Source of the DNA: a virus
Taxonomy: Duplodnaviria > Heunggongvirae > Uroviricota > Caudoviricetes
DNA: 38,200 nt
Virus record (IMG/VR): IMGVR_UViG_2703719355_000022
Span: 1 to 38,200 of that record
Direction: 5' to 3' (one strand)
This document shows, in pieces, positions 15,489-21,651 of this stretch; position 1 is the first letter of the stretch; every line of letters begins with the position of its first letter. The notes beneath the pieces are model-generated. The model did not search any database. It was not told the origin of the DNA and was given only the letters and a program-made list of their open reading frames with translations. A program made the position numbers and the translations under genes.

Positions 15489-15995
15489 TTATGTGATCTT
15501 TAAAGTCTGCTTAGTGCCAGTCTTCTTAATGTTGGTAAGGAAAGCAGCCGGAGGATTGCTTAACCAATAGTAATGAAAACCACTTTGCATACTGTTATAA
15601 GGAACAGTGACAGTAGCACCACCCAAATTAACGGTTATATTCCCCGCTCTACCGTTCTGGAGATATACAGCCATAGTAGGAGTACCGCCATTGAATTGAC
15701 CAACGATAACGCCAATCAGACGCCCTACGCCCACGTTTTCGGGGTTCTCCATAGATCCTTTACCGCGCATGTCAGTTACTGGATAGTTTGAAGCAGTCAC
15801 ACCCCAGTTATTACCCAATGAAGTAGACCACGCAGCAGTAGCTACAACCGTATCCATACCACGACCACACATCGCACTCATGTTAGCTGGGCGACTAACC
15901 TTTAATGCGTTCATTGCTGCGCTCATCCATCGTTGACCAGTTACAGAAACAGCAGATGACCCGACCCAGCCAGGCTTATTAACGACATTCGCCAT
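15489..15995 (-). CDS. hypothetical tail-module protein, 168 aa
   Basis: ORF with GGAGTAA ribosome-binding motif directly after a terminator; Gly/Ala/Ser-rich; function unknown. Confidence 0.4.
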   Translation of the reverse strand: MANVVNKPGWVGSSAVSVTGQRWMSAAMNALKVSRPANMSAMCGRGMDTVVATAAWSTSLGNNWGVTASNYPVTDMRGKGSMENPENVGVGRLIGVIVGQFNGGTPTMAVYLQNGRAGNITVNLGGATVTVPYNSMQSGFHYYWLSNPPAAFLTNIKKTGTKQTLKIT

Positions 15996-16163: not shown

Positions 16164-16637
16164 TCATCCGGCAGTGAAGATTTGCTGTTTCAGCGGAGCA
16201 CCATCCACCGCGAAGGTAAACTCTTTGGTCACAACTTCTTCATCGCCACCGTTCATAGCAACTTTAGAAATGAAGCCGTTGAAAGCGGTGCGAATACCAG
16301 TCTGTTTTGCTGCGTCAACGTAATATTCTACTTTAATCTGAATACGAGTACCGTCTTCGGCAGCTTTGATCAGTTTTTCATGTACCGCATCGCCTGGGAT
16401 GTAGTTAACGGTCAGAGTCAGATCAGGAACGTTCAGCTTCCCTACCAGTTTACGGTTATACTGAGAAGAGAAGGATTTAACTTCTACAGTACCGCGCTCG
16501 ATACCAGTTTCAGGAAAACCAGCACACTCTTTAATTTCTTCGTATGCTTCATCAGCAAGATCGGTGTTAGTGGTATCAGCGTGATAGAACAGACTTACCA
16601 GACCACCAGTAAAAATATCTTTAAATTGTTGAGACAT
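16164..16637 (-). CDS. major tail tube protein candidate, 157 aa
   Basis: AAGGGG ribosome-binding motif; followed by a strong terminator as expected for an abundant structural gene; loose by-eye pattern similarity to the lambda V tube domain; ends in TGA. Confidence 0.45.
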   Translation of the reverse strand: MSQQFKDIFTGGLVSLFYHADTTNTDLADEAYEEIKECAGFPETGIERGTVEVKSFSSQYNRKLVGKLNVPDLTLTVNYIPGDAVHEKLIKAAEDGTRIQIKVEYYVDAAKQTGIRTAFNGFISKVAMNGGDEEVVTKEFTFAVDGAPLKQQIFTAG

Positions 16638-16693: not shown

Positions 16694-19600
16694 TTATTTA
16701 GTTGCTTTGAGTTCGGCAATCTCTTTAGTCAATGCTTCAATCTTAGCTTGATATTTGACGTCCATTTCCTGAATAGCTTTAATAATCAAGGCATTAACAG
16801 CAGAGTTAGAAATAGTCTTAATTGCTTCTGGATTTTCTGGATCTTCGGTGGATTGAATACCTACTGCTTCCGGCAATACTTCTTCCAGATCCTGAGCAAT
16901 AATACCGACTTCGCGTTTAATCACACTACGATCTTTAAGAGACTTAACTTTATCGTATGAGTAGACTTTCAGGGAGTTTACTTTCTCTAAAGCATCATCT
17001 TTTAATTCTTCCAGATTAACTTTCAGACGACGGTCCGAACGAATGTAAACATCGTTAAAGCTACCGTTACGACCTGCGGTAAAGTCACCAGCAGCGTTAA
17101 AGTCAAAGTTAGTATCATGAACATGGAGACGCACAAGAGCGTTACCGATAGTACCGCTAGGAACATGTACACCCATTGCTGCGATATGATATTTACCTTG
17201 ATGGGTTGCTTTCCATACGTTATGAGCGGAATCGGTTGATTGTTGACAGTCGACCTGAATACCAGAAGCACGATCACGCCAGCTAGCCCAACTACCACCA
17301 GCAACGCTACCACGAATAAGACCATTACCGCCACCGGATACAGTGCCCGTTTCAAGGTGAATCATCTTACCGCCGAATTTCCAGACTTCGGTTTGTTTCT
17401 CACCGCGCATACGCATAACGCCAGCATCATCGCAGTACAACAGACCCAATTCTAAGCCATTTGGATCTCTAAACCACAAATGCTTATTGCCACTGCGACG
17501 AAACTCAATATCAGCACCGTTAAGCGTGATATTACCGCCAGTGTGAATTGCTTTAGGTTTAACAGTACCGTTGATGGCAAACTCGATTAATTCAGTACCC
17601 GGACCGCCCGGTCGTTGTGTGTACCAGTGCCAACCGCTTTCGTCCGCACATTCGAATACTTGTTTACGAGCATCAGCACCCCACGCACGGATATTAAAGC
17701 TAGAAGTAGCTGTATTTTTGCCCCACGTTAATTTTCCTTCGGTAGTTAAATCCCCTCGGAAATGAGCAAGCAAACCACCAGATCCGTTACGTTCAGTGGT
17801 AAAGTGAGTTCCGCTAGTGTCCTGGAATTGCAAAACGTTATATCGGTTAGCGTTACTATTCCCCCAATGGTTAATCGTGAAAGAATCCATTGACTGATTC
17901 CCACCAGCAGAGAAAGTAAGCAATCCTTTTTCTAAGAATACGTTATTACTAAAGCGAGCAGCACGGCTATCTCTTTCAAGAATTAATGCACCTTCGTTAC
18001 CATCACCACCTAAAGTAACTTTACCATTTGTCAAATCGTAAATGAATGGTCGGTTTCCGTTCCACCCGCCCAATTTATCATTTTCGGCAGTAGAAAGAAG
18101 ATAAACTTTAGTGCCGTCATTACGCCAGAATGCACCATAATTACCGTAGATCATGCGGTAGGCGTCGCTATTCATTGAGATGAATTGAGCGTTAGTATAA
18201 ACTCGTTTTGTTCTACCAGTTGCAAGTTCGATCTGTCCGTCGATGTGGTGACGAATAGAAGTACCACCTACATCACTATACCATTCAAAAACGTTAGTAT
18301 CAGCATTACCATAACCGATCCACCCTTGACGGGTAATATCTCCAGTCCGATTATCTTGAAACGCAATATGGTTGGATTGACCAGCAGGACGCCGCAAGGT
18401 AATAACATTACTACCGCCACCTAACATCATTCGACCAGAAAGAATATTACCTTTATGAGTCCCAGCAATAGAGCTACTAGATTCAACGGTTAGAATCTCC
18501 TGAGCATCAGTGCTACCAGTAGCCAGACGATAACTGGAACCTTGAACCGTCTCATGCCAGATCATTTCATTATAGTTACTGCGGAATTTACGAATATATT
18601 TCCGACCAGTACCTTTATCATTACTTAGATGAACAATGTCATAGCTGTTTTGTGTGTTGTCGTCAAAACTCAACACACCACGTTTATTTTCTGTGTTAAA
18701 AAGAGTTACGTTGCGACCACCGATAACACCAACGGAAGGTTTAATTAACGTGGCTTCCGGCGTATCATAAACCGTCAAACTTACATAAACAGATTTCCCA
18801 TATTCGACAATAACGTTATCGGTATAACGCTGATATTTCACGTAGATATCATAGTTATCACCGGAAGTATTGACAGCAAATACCTCAAAATCTTTGTTTG
18901 TATTTCTACGGTATGCAATTACGTTAAGACCTTTAGGTCTATCGTTACCACTACGGAGAAGAATTTCTACTACATCAACTTGGTCATATGCCGTAACGTT
19001 GTAACCATTACCACCATGAATACGGAAAAACACACTACGCCCGTTTTGTGGAATTGTTGCGGTTGCCAATTTGAAATATGCAGATACGTTTTCGCTAGAA
19101 TTGGGAACAGACATAACGACGTTTTTAACAAACATCTTATCAACTTCGGCTTTGGTGTATGCACCAATCTCGCCAGGAGTCGGCTTATCACCTTCGTGAT
19201 ACATTTTATAGCTAAAGTCCTTCTGTCCTTCTCTATCAAAACCATAGGTTTCAACACGAGATCCACCAGACGCATAACGGAAAGTAAATCCGCGACCGTG
19301 CGCTTTACCGGCAGAATGAGGAACATTAAGAGTTAGATCTAAAAGACCATCTTGTTCATTAGTTCGGAAAGCACCAAAGTAATTAAGATCTCGTGATGTC
19401 TGGTCTTCCAGATAGTTAGCTGTCTTGCTTAACAGATACCCACCATGCTTAGTATTGGTATTCTTCTTGATGTAAAGAGCATCGTTGCTACCTTCAATAC
19501 CATCAATTCGACGGTTAGCGGCTGCAATCGCTGAATCAGTAGCTGATTTATTCTGGTCAACCTTGTTGTTAATGGCGGTGTGGTTGCTATTAACAGTGTT

Positions 19601-20305
19601 GGTTAAGTTGGTGATCTTCGTATCAGCATCGACCTTGTTATCGGATACAACCTTTTCGATTGCGGTCTTATTCGCCGCTACTGTCCCACTAAGGTTATTA
19701 ATTTTTGTGTCCGCGTCTTTCTTATTGGAAGTCACTGTAGCGGTTAAATTGCTAACGTTGGTGTTAGTGGTATTGACCTTGTTGTTTATTGCGGTATTGT
19801 TGTCCGCGACCGTCTTTGATAAAGCTGCGTGTTTACTATCGGCATCAGATTTATTCTGGTCGACCTTTGTGTTAATAGCGGTATGGTTGCTACTTACGGT
19901 CCCACTAAGATTATTAATTTTGGTGTCAGCATCGACCTTGTTATCACTAACCACTTTGGTCAAATTGCTAACGTTGGTATTAGTAGCATCAATGCGCTTA
20001 TTGGTCGCTGTATCTTTCGTGGTAATAGTCTGATTCAGTTCAGCTTTAGCACTAGCCAGATTATTAGCGGCCTCTTGTTTGTTGGAAGCAATAACACGGT
20101 CAGTGCTAGTTTTGTTATTGTCTACTTTCGTGTTTAAAGCATTATGACTTTCTGGGGAAACGCTGATTTGAACTACTGCGTTATTTTTGTCTTTGGTGTA
20201 AATTACATGGTCTGCCATCTGAATAGCGATTTCACCGACCTGTAATTGTTCTGGCGTTGGCTTTTTACCAGCCGTCTGTGTGCGTTTAAATTGGATAGAC
20301 TCCAT
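16694..20305 (-). CDS. tail fiber protein with C-terminal intramolecular chaperone (peptidase S74-like) domain, 1203 aa
   Basis: N-terminal tandem ~44-aa repeats (NTNVSNLT...DADTKINNLSGTV...); C-terminal segment DRRLKVNLEEL...VGIIAQDLEEVLPEAV resembles auto-cleaving chaperone domains of phage fibers. Confidence 0.8.
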   Translation of the reverse strand: MESIQFKRTQTAGKKPTPEQLQVGEIAIQMADHVIYTKDKNNAVVQISVSPESHNALNTKVDNNKTSTDRVIASNKQEAANNLASAKAELNQTITTKDTATNKRIDATNTNVSNLTKVVSDNKVDADTKINNLSGTVSSNHTAINTKVDQNKSDADSKHAALSKTVADNNTAINNKVNTTNTNVSNLTATVTSNKKDADTKINNLSGTVAANKTAIEKVVSDNKVDADTKITNLTNTVNSNHTAINNKVDQNKSATDSAIAAANRRIDGIEGSNDALYIKKNTNTKHGGYLLSKTANYLEDQTSRDLNYFGAFRTNEQDGLLDLTLNVPHSAGKAHGRGFTFRYASGGSRVETYGFDREGQKDFSYKMYHEGDKPTPGEIGAYTKAEVDKMFVKNVVMSVPNSSENVSAYFKLATATIPQNGRSVFFRIHGGNGYNVTAYDQVDVVEILLRSGNDRPKGLNVIAYRRNTNKDFEVFAVNTSGDNYDIYVKYQRYTDNVIVEYGKSVYVSLTVYDTPEATLIKPSVGVIGGRNVTLFNTENKRGVLSFDDNTQNSYDIVHLSNDKGTGRKYIRKFRSNYNEMIWHETVQGSSYRLATGSTDAQEILTVESSSSIAGTHKGNILSGRMMLGGGSNVITLRRPAGQSNHIAFQDNRTGDITRQGWIGYGNADTNVFEWYSDVGGTSIRHHIDGQIELATGRTKRVYTNAQFISMNSDAYRMIYGNYGAFWRNDGTKVYLLSTAENDKLGGWNGNRPFIYDLTNGKVTLGGDGNEGALILERDSRAARFSNNVFLEKGLLTFSAGGNQSMDSFTINHWGNSNANRYNVLQFQDTSGTHFTTERNGSGGLLAHFRGDLTTEGKLTWGKNTATSSFNIRAWGADARKQVFECADESGWHWYTQRPGGPGTELIEFAINGTVKPKAIHTGGNITLNGADIEFRRSGNKHLWFRDPNGLELGLLYCDDAGVMRMRGEKQTEVWKFGGKMIHLETGTVSGGGNGLIRGSVAGGSWASWRDRASGIQVDCQQSTDSAHNVWKATHQGKYHIAAMGVHVPSGTIGNALVRLHVHDTNFDFNAAGDFTAGRNGSFNDVYIRSDRRLKVNLEELKDDALEKVNSLKVYSYDKVKSLKDRSVIKREVGIIAQDLEEVLPEAVGIQSTEDPENPEAIKTISNSAVNALIIKAIQEMDVKYQAKIEALTKEIAELKATK

Positions 20306-20379
20306 TGAATCACCTCACTATAAAACAGGAATAAGGGAGGCGTTAACCTCCCCGCGTCATGTTTTATTTAGGAAGTGAA

Positions 20380-21213
20380 TCAATACTCCCCGAAATCGAC
20401 TCTATCAGTTTTAGCCACTGCCCCGATCTCGGCGGGAGTTGGCTTTTCATGTTCACTAAAAACCTTCACCCATCGAGATTGACCACCTTTCTGGATAGTT
20501 CGGACACGCAAACGAGGATCACCCGCAGTGGTACATGTTAGTTGCCAACCACCGTCTTCATTTGGCTGTAAATGCAATAGTGATGTATCGGATGAGAACG
20601 GGTTGCTACCAGCGGTTCCCTTGTAGGTTACGAAACGGTTTCCTGCTAATGCCTCGCTATCAATACCCCCTGTAAACGGGCTAATTCCAGCGCCTACGCC
20701 AAAGTCCCCTTGTCGAATGAGTTTTCCCTCGGTCGCTATACCCCTTGCTAGAATCCCGCCATCTGGTTCAAGTTTAAATTCCAGTGTTACAGCTTTGTTA
20801 TCTGCGCCACGGGTTTTGTGACTAGTGACATAAGCGTCATAGATGACATAGTAACCAGTGTTAGCAGCACTATAGCCAGAGTTCACAACATAGAACATAC
20901 GGAAGCGTAAAGGTGTTTTATCCTCTACCGCTTTCATCAACATTGCTTGATGTTCATCGTCAAGAACACGGTTTAATGTGAGTGTTGTCGGTTCCAGTCT
21001 ACGATAACCAGCAAGTTTCCCCGTAGCGTCCTGATCGTACTCTTCCAGAGTTTCAATCTCTGTGGATTCGGTTAGCGTAGGGAATGCTGCGACGTTCTCA
21101 ATAGAACTAAAACTAGGATCGAAAAAGTCGACCTGATTGTCTATCTGGTTAGAGATCGACACTTCAACATGTGATCCAGTGAAAATATCTAAGTTATCAT
21201 GTGTAATATTCAT
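20380..21213 (-). CDS. virion structural protein with fiber-like C-terminal motif, 277 aa
   Basis: Located between head-tail genes and the fiber gene; C-terminal HEKPTPAEIGAVAKTD motif also occurs twice in the fiber protein. Confidence 0.4.
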   Translation of the reverse strand: MNITHDNLDIFTGSHVEVSISNQIDNQVDFFDPSFSSIENVAAFPTLTESTEIETLEEYDQDATGKLAGYRRLEPTTLTLNRVLDDEHQAMLMKAVEDKTPLRFRMFYVVNSGYSAANTGYYVIYDAYVTSHKTRGADNKAVTLEFKLEPDGGILARGIATEGKLIRQGDFGVGAGISPFTGGIDSEALAGNRFVTYKGTAGSNPFSSDTSLLHLQPNEDGGWQLTCTTAGDPRLRVRTIQKGGQSRWVKVFSEHEKPTPAEIGAVAKTDRVDFGEY

Positions 21214-21222
21214 TATTACCCC

Positions 21223-21651
21223 TTAAAAACGCGCTAGATAAGAAAATTTAAGGCTAAGTGTCCCAACGATACCCCCATCACTAGAATCATCGTCATAATC
21301 GGTATTAGAAGCTACTGGAGTGATATCTGAAATAGAGAAGCCCAAATCTTTAAATCGTGGGTTATCCGGCTGAATCTGGATTATCTGGCAAATACCCTCA
21401 TGGATTTTTGTTTCATGAATCTGAGAATATAATTGCATTTCGATAACGCATTCAGCTTGCATTGCATTACCACCACGAACACGCGTATAAGTTTCATTCA
21501 TGCCAGTAATCCAACAAACCACGTCATCACTAAAGCCTTGCTGAGTTTGTTCTACGTTTAAAGCCAGACCTAGATCTTGTTCGATAATATCCTGTAAAGC
21601 ACGTTTAATCTTAAGACGTGGCATATTATTAACGGTAGCGAGCATGTGCAC
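21223..21651 (-). CDS. putative head-tail joining / tail completion protein, 142 aa
   Basis: Position downstream of capsid gene; overlaps upstream ORF by 23 nt; no motif confirmed. Confidence 0.35.
   Translation of the reverse strand: MHMLATVNNMPRLKIKRALQDIIEQDLGLALNVEQTQQGFSDDVVCWITGMNETYTRVRGGNAMQAECVIEMQLYSQIHETKIHEGICQIIQIQPDNPRFKDLGFSISDITPVASNTDYDDDSSDGGIVGTLSLKFSYLARF

Follow-up and report, generated by a model that had tools for sequence, protein, structure and literature searches.

A tail tube paralogue as a putative gp36-like adaptor for the gp37-type side fibre of a lambda-like temperate siphovirus

C-terminal decoration domains are present on lambda gpV (an Ig domain) and on SPP1 gp17.1*, and the p132 collar serves as the attachment point for pb1, the L-shaped tail fibre protein of T5. 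In T4 the gp36 trimer attaches to the N-terminal part of gp37 (PMC3004832), and in Ur-lambda each trimer of the side fibre Stf has three separate collar domains on flexible linkers of ~10 residues (PMC12617516). Here we describe a locus that resembles each of these systems in part. It lies in a stretch of 38,200 nucleotides (nt) of viral DNA (IMG/VR record IMGVR_UViG_2703719355_000022, positions 1 to 38,200; hereafter ‘the window’), which carries, on its minus strand, the structural genes of a temperate siphovirus of the lambda type. Two neighbouring genes are at issue, for a protein of 277 amino acids (aa) and for a 1203-aa fibre, together with a short motif, KPTP-x-E-IGA, that an initial annotation had reported three times across their products. 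The 277-aa protein is probably a gp36-like adaptor, built on a paralogue of the tail tube protein, that joins the gp37-type fibre at a joint of the gp36/gp37 type.

The likeness to the distal half-fibre joint of T4 and of the Krischvirus phages Phi1 and RB49 extends to both partners. The 277-aa protein ends …KPTPxxxGAV…[IV]DFGx[FY], as gp36 does (its ‘tail’), the fibre starts IQFKR…P-x7-GE[LI]AIN, as gp37 does (its ‘head’), and the tail-bearing gene precedes the head-bearing gene in the same order; a gp38-like adhesin gene is also present, and most of the fibre body has ~80% DNA identity to Krischvirus gene 37. Unlike T4, however, the phage is a lambda-like siphovirus rather than a myovirus. 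Neither a gp34 proximal half-fibre nor a gp35 knee is encoded between terminator and fibre, where there is instead a tube-protein domain, and the gp36-like end is fused to this tube paralogue, with the gp36 body nearly gone and only the last 28 aa gp36-like.

With lambda gpV and SPP1 gp17.1* the 277-aa protein shares an N-terminal tube domain of the same fold and a C-terminal module that would be exposed outside the tube, but this module is a predicted trimeric-fibre knob with a joint, not a monomeric Ig or FN3 domain, and a second, undecorated tube protein is encoded. Like Ur-lambda Stf, the fibre is an accessory one, placed beside a J-type central fibre on the tail of a lambda-like siphovirus, and it too may be a trimer connected by flexible linkers to separate anchor domains around the tail axis. 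The Stf anchor, in contrast, is a small collar domain on gpV and gpM, whereas that of the window would be a tube paralogue on a polypeptide separate from the fibre. T5 pb1 and endosialidase-type fibres are comparable in their S74 chaperone end and as accessory side fibres of a siphovirus; in contrast to T5, no p132-type collar protein was seen in the window, and the N-terminal anchor is of the gp37 type.

The 277-aa protein and its joint with the fibre

The 277-aa protein begins with a full paralogue of the lambda-gpV-type tail tube protein of the same phage, to which are added a glycine-rich linker and a single knob module (coordinates of all features are given in Table 1). Residues 9–163 align with the entire 157-aa tube protein of the same phage (30% identity, E=4e-16). 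AlphaFold2 (AF2) modelled this domain with predicted local distance difference test scores (pLDDT) of 80–92, and the best Foldseek matches were lambda gpV tube structures (8k36_A, E=1.4e-7, target-normalised TM-score (TMt) 0.62), with other siphovirus tube proteins also among the top structures. Residues G169, G172, G174, G176, G182 and D185 of the linker are invariant across the family despite pLDDT below 50. Five strands were predicted in the knob (193–196, 211–218, 221–227, 234–240 and 246–251; pLDDT 45–75), and the motif comes after the fifth. In a small database, a family profile matched the stretch preceding the motif in Phi1 gp34 (847–917, 1.3e-7) and in Phi1 gp36 (429–496, 2.7e-7), and also matched T4 gp34 at 1220–1257 (0.012). 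The twelve residues that follow the motif end …VDFGEY-COOH. Across 18 diverse relatives P258, A265, D273 and G275 are invariant, so the lack of conservation in homologues that would have counted against a role for the motif was not seen for this C-terminal copy.

The final 28 aa align end-to-end with the final 28 of Phi1 gp36 (E=2e-5; …KPTPADVGAV…IDFGTF), the C-terminus of which is RYQLYHEGNKPTPADVGAVPLNAVIDFGTF (…AVIDFGTF). T4 gp36 ends …SVQDFGYY, and every close relative of the 277-aa protein has the same type of ending. One member of the family, the 395-aa P0090, has a gp36-like body behind its tube domain and knob, with STIDFGTF as its C-terminus; the alignment with T4 gp36 covers 166 aa (E=1e-15). 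On the other side of the joint, the fibre N-terminus, MESIQFKRTQTAGKKPTPEQLQVGEIAIQMADHVIYTKDKNNAVVQI, matches T4 gp37 residues 4–63 (35% identity, E=6e-12) and also resembles the Phi1 gp37 N-terminus. By homology, the motif and tail of the 277-aa protein correspond to the C-terminal end of gp36, and the fibre head to its gp37-type partner. The suggestion in the initial annotation that the recurrence has to do with fibre attachment is borne out to this extent: the C-terminal copy of the motif and the fibre N-terminus fall in the two halves of the T4 gp36–gp37 joint (PMC3004832).

Gene order points the same way. At every locus read, a gene ending [IV]D[FL]G-x-x directly precedes one starting [IFL][QK][FL][KR]R…P-x7-GE[LI]x[IV]N; these loci were the window, two E. 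coli prophages (L007 and L008), phage DCP80, Enterobacter, Proteus (two successive joints), L012, L013, Phi1 and T4. The adjacency is kept in L007 and L008, where the fibres are otherwise unrelated to that of the window, and in Enterobacter, where the head is divergent (HQLRK…, with two fewer residues before GE). The Proteus prophage has two joints, one after the other: the first protein, of 275 aa, ends …EEIDFGEF; next comes one of 198 aa comprising a head, a coiled coil and an …LIMDFGTF end, and after it a 675-aa gp37-like fibre with a head of its own. Relatives without the gp36-type ending have the whole fibre in one chain, and there the tube protein gene comes next. Moreover, among 54 E. 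coli prophages around half cease to resemble the window in DNA at window position 20145 (fibre codon ~53); the 277-aa gene and the fibre head have therefore been kept together while the rest of the fibre was exchanged.

Tails and heads also seem to co-vary. Tails of the form DFGE[YF] precede SIQFKRT..KPTP.QL..GE..I..DHV heads, and DFGTF tails precede [RQ]IQFKRT…GELA[IL]N[LM]AD heads (window 20383–20418 and 20147–20305; L005 8001–11516; L002 5947–10450). This gives only a hint of pairing specificity, from a small sample of related cases.

The fibre encoded next to it probably docks on the gp36-like tail of the 277-aa protein, and an assembly can be proposed on the basis of these homologies. The 277-aa protein would enter the tail as a tube-type ring subunit, forming or joining a ring, both this incorporation and the position of the ring along the tail being matters of inference; that the ring is hexameric is suggested by the fold only. 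Its glycine-rich linkers would be flexible enough for the C-terminal knob modules of three subunits to form a trimer on the outside of the tube, and the resulting gp36-like stub would hold the trimeric 1203-aa fibre non-covalently, the tail acting as a ‘plug’ for the gp37-type ‘socket’. One hexameric ring would carry two such side fibres, which the phage would have besides its lambda-J-like central fibre.

Several points weigh against this proposal. Contact between tail and head is proposed from homology and gene order only, and the cases of adjacency are phylogenetically related rather than independent trials. AF2 confidence is low for the C-terminal module, and the knob profile gave weak matches to solved structures (E=0.021 and 0.085). 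The 277-aa protein had no Pfam match above threshold, including to Phage_T4_gp36 (PF03903), and no NCBIfam match; Pfam and NCBIfam searches of the gp37-type head and of the knob module likewise returned nothing. Sequence searches of the Protein Data Bank, one of them with Phi1 gp36 as query, found no relative of the 277-aa protein and no solved gp36 or gp36–gp37 joint. Finally, a hexameric ring that carries trimeric fibres needs a solution to the symmetry mismatch, for which the collar domains and linkers of Ur-lambda Stf offer a precedent by analogy.

Alternatively, the 277-aa protein might be merely a decorated tube protein with a vestigial fibre-like C-terminus, the fibre attaching elsewhere, for example at the tail tip. 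There are precedents for such decoration in lambda gpV and SPP1 gp17.1*, and for the location in lambda Stf, which attaches near gpV–gpM at the tip via its own collar domains (PMC12617516). We consider this unlikely: few parts of the family are as well conserved as the last twelve residues, unlike a vestige, in more than 100 relatives the chain runs on at this point as a complete fibre with a receptor-binding or S74 end, the 1203-aa fibre has only a gp37-type head and no Stf-like collar domain, and the phage retains a second tube protein that is undecorated.

KPTP sites and the module-end motif

Recurrence of KPTP in the two proteins is real and not a matter of chance, since three occurrences were observed against 0.004 expected from the composition of their 1480 residues, and translation of the 38.2-kb window in all six frames gave only four, three of which are these sites. 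They are at aa 15–18 of the fibre (window 20252–20263, minus strand), aa 374–377 of the fibre and aa 257–260 of the 277-aa protein. What recurs three times is KPTP, however, rather than the full KPTP-x-E-IGA of the initial annotation: the consensus fits exactly at the mid-fibre and 277-aa sites only, and the fibre N-terminus has KPTP with a displaced ‘GEIA’ (KPTP-EQLQVG-EIAI). The nine-codon cores of the two exact copies are identical at 22/27 bases, with synonymous differences between them; the motif has therefore not been duplicated recently as DNA, and its similarity is kept at the protein level.

Comparison with T4-type phages identifies KPTPAEIGA and the mid-fibre KPTPGEIGA as copies of an ordinary module-end motif of long tail fibres, [YF]-x3-4-[KN]-P-T-x-x-[DE]-[IV]-G-A, which recurs in T4-type gp34, gp36 and gp37. 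A fuller context, W/Y-x-[KQR]-[IVM]-[YF]-x3-4-[KNP]-P-T-x-x-[DE]-[IV]-G-A, surrounds every copy. One copy is found near the end of Phi1 gp34 and one near the end of T4 gp34; Phi1 gp36 has three regular-expression matches and a looser fourth copy detected by profile, Phi1 gp37 has a single copy, and long fibres in the protein library contain the motif eight or more times each. In T4 gp34 the P5 beta-prism spans residues 1146–1238, after which a short triple beta-helix begins (PMC5537660), and the motif copy (PPQPSDIGA, 1242–1250) lies directly after the prism, where the helix starts. The motif would thus follow the last beta-strand of a knob (…W-x-K-[IV]-[YF]-x3-4-K) and lead into the next segment of a trimeric fibre.

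The single copy in Phi1 gp37 (KPTPSELNV) is at the site equivalent to the mid-fibre copy of the window, which itself sits between PHROG matches at 274–385 and 399–544. The mid-fibre copy is, on this evidence, best read as an ordinary boundary between modules that came with a gp37 segment of the Krischvirus type, and not as a docking site. Nor does it mark a mosaic breakpoint, the mosaic boundaries being at fibre aa ~53 and ~286 instead.

The N-terminal site differs from both. KKPTPEQLQVGEIAI belongs to the gp37-type N-terminal domain, with the signature [IF][QK][FL][KR]R…[KR]P-x7-GE[LI]x[IV]N, and the knob-plus-motif profile does not recognise it. At the position of its KPTP, T4 has TRPAAS, Phi1 RKPDAS, DCP80 YIPKAA and Enterobacter HKPQS. 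The three sites are therefore better described, at the level of sequence, as two kinds of element: two true copies of the module-end motif and one gp37-type N-terminal element.

The idea behind the initial annotation was that all three are instead the same docking or oligomerisation element, common to the two proteins. In its favour, all three sites have KPTP, far above chance. The closest relatives (L007, L008 and the Proteus 198-aa protein) also have KPTP at the N-terminal site, where it seems to accompany the DFGE[YF] type of tail. The profile search that had been proposed as a check, however, recovered the mid-fibre, gp34, gp36 and gp37 sites and missed the fibre N-terminus. Furthermore, the spacing is unlike (P-x7-GE in the head, P-T-x-x-E-I-G-A in the motif), the N-terminal site has no preceding W-x-K-[IV]-Y strand, and other gp37-type heads have no conserved KPTP. 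A single shared element is accordingly improbable. What survives of the docking idea is a pair of unlike partners, the gp36-type C-terminus of the 277-aa protein and the gp37-type N-terminus of the fibre, with no place in it for the mid-fibre copy.

Equally doubtful is the reading of the motif as mainly a recombination site for swapping fibre modules, with no special structural role. Fibres in this prophage group are mosaic, and the extra modules of longer relatives are inserted exactly between successive motif copies. Against this, the two copies in the window share only 22/27 bases, a stretch whose shortness and divergence would make homologous recombination inefficient, the mapped mosaic boundaries miss the motif, and the motif is conserved at the protein level, with a defined place after the beta-prism in gp34. 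Recombination at the motif would nevertheless be compatible with the gp36-like adaptor as a secondary effect.

Relatives, fused forms and the composite fibre

Homologues of the 277-aa protein formed 78 clusters in Enterobacterales prophages. The block found in the window is present in 54/5426 complete E. coli genomes, in every case on the chromosome, and also in Salmonella, Shigella, Providencia, Edwardsiella, Proteus and Enterobacter. The family profile drew in 342 representatives (161 at E<=1e-10), most of them 600–1500 aa long, in which an N-terminal tube domain and knob are followed by a complete fibre (P0095–P0226); several end in an S74-type chaperone. A scan of contigs for fused loci, made with a single peptide pattern, returned two (L010 5992–10296 and L011 5992–8907): Enterobacterales prophages of Leclercia and Rouxiella have a single fused gene in the same slot, immediately upstream of the ordinary tube protein gene. 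Because in its relatives tube domain and entire fibre form a single chain, the 277-aa protein can be regarded as the shortest form of a tube-anchored fibre, apparently cut at the gp36/gp37 joint. In longer relatives (446–1209 aa) whole modules are inserted between the first copy of the motif and the last copy, which precedes the tail, a pattern that fits the domain shuffling envisaged in the initial annotation.

Among 50,697 phage records, tblastn with the 277-aa protein and a distant relative found only phage DCP80 (L001, GenBank PQ671644, 1–21560), the sole carrier of the family in this collection of isolated phages. This 141-kb record is filed under Straboviridae/Gaprivervirus, yet its first ~20 kb encode the structural proteins of a lambda-like siphovirus, a tube-anchored fibre among them. 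The record may be a chimeric assembly or a misclassification.

The 1203-aa fibre is itself composite. Its residues 286–1200 align with Phi1 gp37 aa 67–978, that is, with gp37 minus its own head, and the ~80% DNA identity of this body is to gene 37 of the virulent T4-like Krischvirus phages Phi1, RB49 and ECD7. The junction lies near GGYLLSKTANYLED, where gp37's own N-terminal head has been removed, and the similarity suggests that a virulent myovirus and a temperate siphovirus have exchanged sequence. By sequence comparison the fibre is an in-frame fusion of counterparts of the Proteus 198-aa and 675-aa proteins, in which aa 1–285 are equivalent to the 198-aa segment and aa 286–1200 to a headless gp37. 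The rod between head and body contains diverged direct repeats (19535–19642 against 19838–19945, 76%, and two shorter pairs 216 nt apart); these are dispersed, and Tandem Repeats Finder returned nothing for the rod region.

Neighbouring genes and significance

On the minus strand the window encodes, in order, a gpA-type terminase, a lambda-type portal, a protease–capsid fusion, a 96-aa protein, a 142-aa protein, the 277-aa protein and the fibre, followed by the 157-aa tube protein, the gp38-like adhesin, G/T chaperones, the tape measure, tip proteins and a J-like central fibre. The 96-aa protein has a weak, below-cutoff match to Phage_attach, the head–tail attachment family of lambda gpFII. 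The 142-aa protein had no Pfam, PHROG or NCBIfam match; Foldseek matched its model to lambda gpU (3fzb, 8iyd_K) and T5 p142 (E about 1e-5). Its homologues are 140 aa long, and its true start is therefore probably the ATG at 21643–21645 rather than the listed GTG. The structural model indicates that this gpU-like protein fills the role of tail terminator; the 277-aa protein was rejected as a candidate, as its neighbour has the gpU fold and it itself matches tube proteins.

Table 1. Features of the window at and around the fibre locus, with evidence. ORF, open reading frame; pTM, predicted TM-score; iE, independent E-value.
Feature	Position in window	Strand	Evidence
J-like central fibre, 1260 aa	6673-10455	-	lambda J C-terminal receptor-binding domain, Ig_GpJ_C 8.3e-34
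gp38-like fibre-tip adhesin	15489..15995	-	Pfam Gp38_N 2e-15; phrog_1121 6.3e-34
Tail tube protein, 157 aa, undecorated paralogue	16164..16637	-	Phage_TTP_11 and phrog_158, 1.9e-21
1203-aa side fibre	16694..20305	-	ORF; Pfam Gp34_trimer and Peptidase_S74; phrog_1699 long tail fiber distal subunit, 1.3e-141
Krischvirus gp37-like body, aa 286-1200	16706..19450	-	~80% nucleotide identity to Phi1/RB49 gene 37
Peptidase_S74 intramolecular chaperone domain, aa 1090-1148	16862..17038	-	Pfam PF13884, E=1.8e-15
Mid-fibre module-end motif KPTPGEIGA, aa 374-382	19160..19186	-	profile match 355-387, iE 0.0025
Asn/Thr/Lys-rich rod, aa 54-285	19451..20146	-	internal repeats; counterpart is separate 198-aa Proteus prophage protein
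gp37-type N-terminal domain, aa 1-53, proposed ‘socket’	20147..20305	-	T4 gp37 match; KKPTPEQLQVGEIAI at 20225-20263
277-aa protein	20380..21213	-	ORF; phrog_158 major tail protein over aa 10-154 (4.9e-9)
C-terminal tail VAKTDRVDFGEY, aa 266-277, proposed ‘plug’	20383..20418	-	D273, G275 invariant
Module-end motif KPTPAEIGA, aa 257-265	20419..20445	-	aligns with Phi1 gp36 KPTPADVGA
Knob module, aa 193-251	20461..20637	-	five predicted beta-strands, AF2
Glycine-rich linker, aa 164-192 (…GDFGVGAGISPFTGGIDSEALAG…)	20638..20724	-	pLDDT below 50; conserved glycines
Tube domain, aa 9-163 of 277-aa protein	20725..21189	-	identity to own tube protein, AF2, Foldseek
Tail terminator, lambda gpU-like, 142 aa	21223..21651	-	AF2 pLDDT 78.8, pTM 0.72; Foldseek
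Prohead protease (Peptidase_S78) and major capsid fusion, 690 aa	22120-24192	-	single ORF

With its J-like protein, the phage probably has a J-type primary receptor-binding protein, the 1203-aa fibre being accessory. A gp38-like adhesin gene coexists with the S74-ended fibre, the same pairing being found in L003 and L012, and Phi1, the gp37 of which is nearest to the fibre body, has no gp38 gene. The pairing of S74 and Gp38_N poses a puzzle, that of an adhesin capping a fibre whose end is cleaved off. The protease–capsid fusion has a long, very acidic, Glu/Asp-rich linker at about aa 185–300.

The motif, then, is ordinary, and the tube-anchored adaptor architecture is a variant of known fibre-attachment schemes. 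Within the limited literature set searched we found no description of it, and searches for the motif as a string and for fusions of tube protein and fibre returned nothing relevant. In practice the motif is useful as a marker of module boundaries in long tail fibres, and the locus supplies a testable model of a siphovirus side fibre anchored via a copy of its own tube protein.

A wider, more tentative picture, which we put forward as a possibility somewhat short of an even chance, is that temperate lambda-like siphophages of Enterobacterales have widespread side fibres on a tube-protein paralogue, and that in one branch these have been cut at a gp36/gp37-type joint, letting distal half-fibres of virulent T-even myophages (gp37 body and gp38-like adhesin) be mounted on the tail of a siphovirus, with the [IV]DFGx[FY] tail and IQFKR head as a portable connector that chains segments. 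A short, sequence-defined joint appears to link fibre segments across phage morphotypes. If the joint operates in this way, it would provide an annotation rule for fibre adaptors now labelled ‘hypothetical protein’, offer engineers who swap receptor-binding fibres a natural plug-and-socket, and explain the traffic of host-range modules between T-even phages and prophages.

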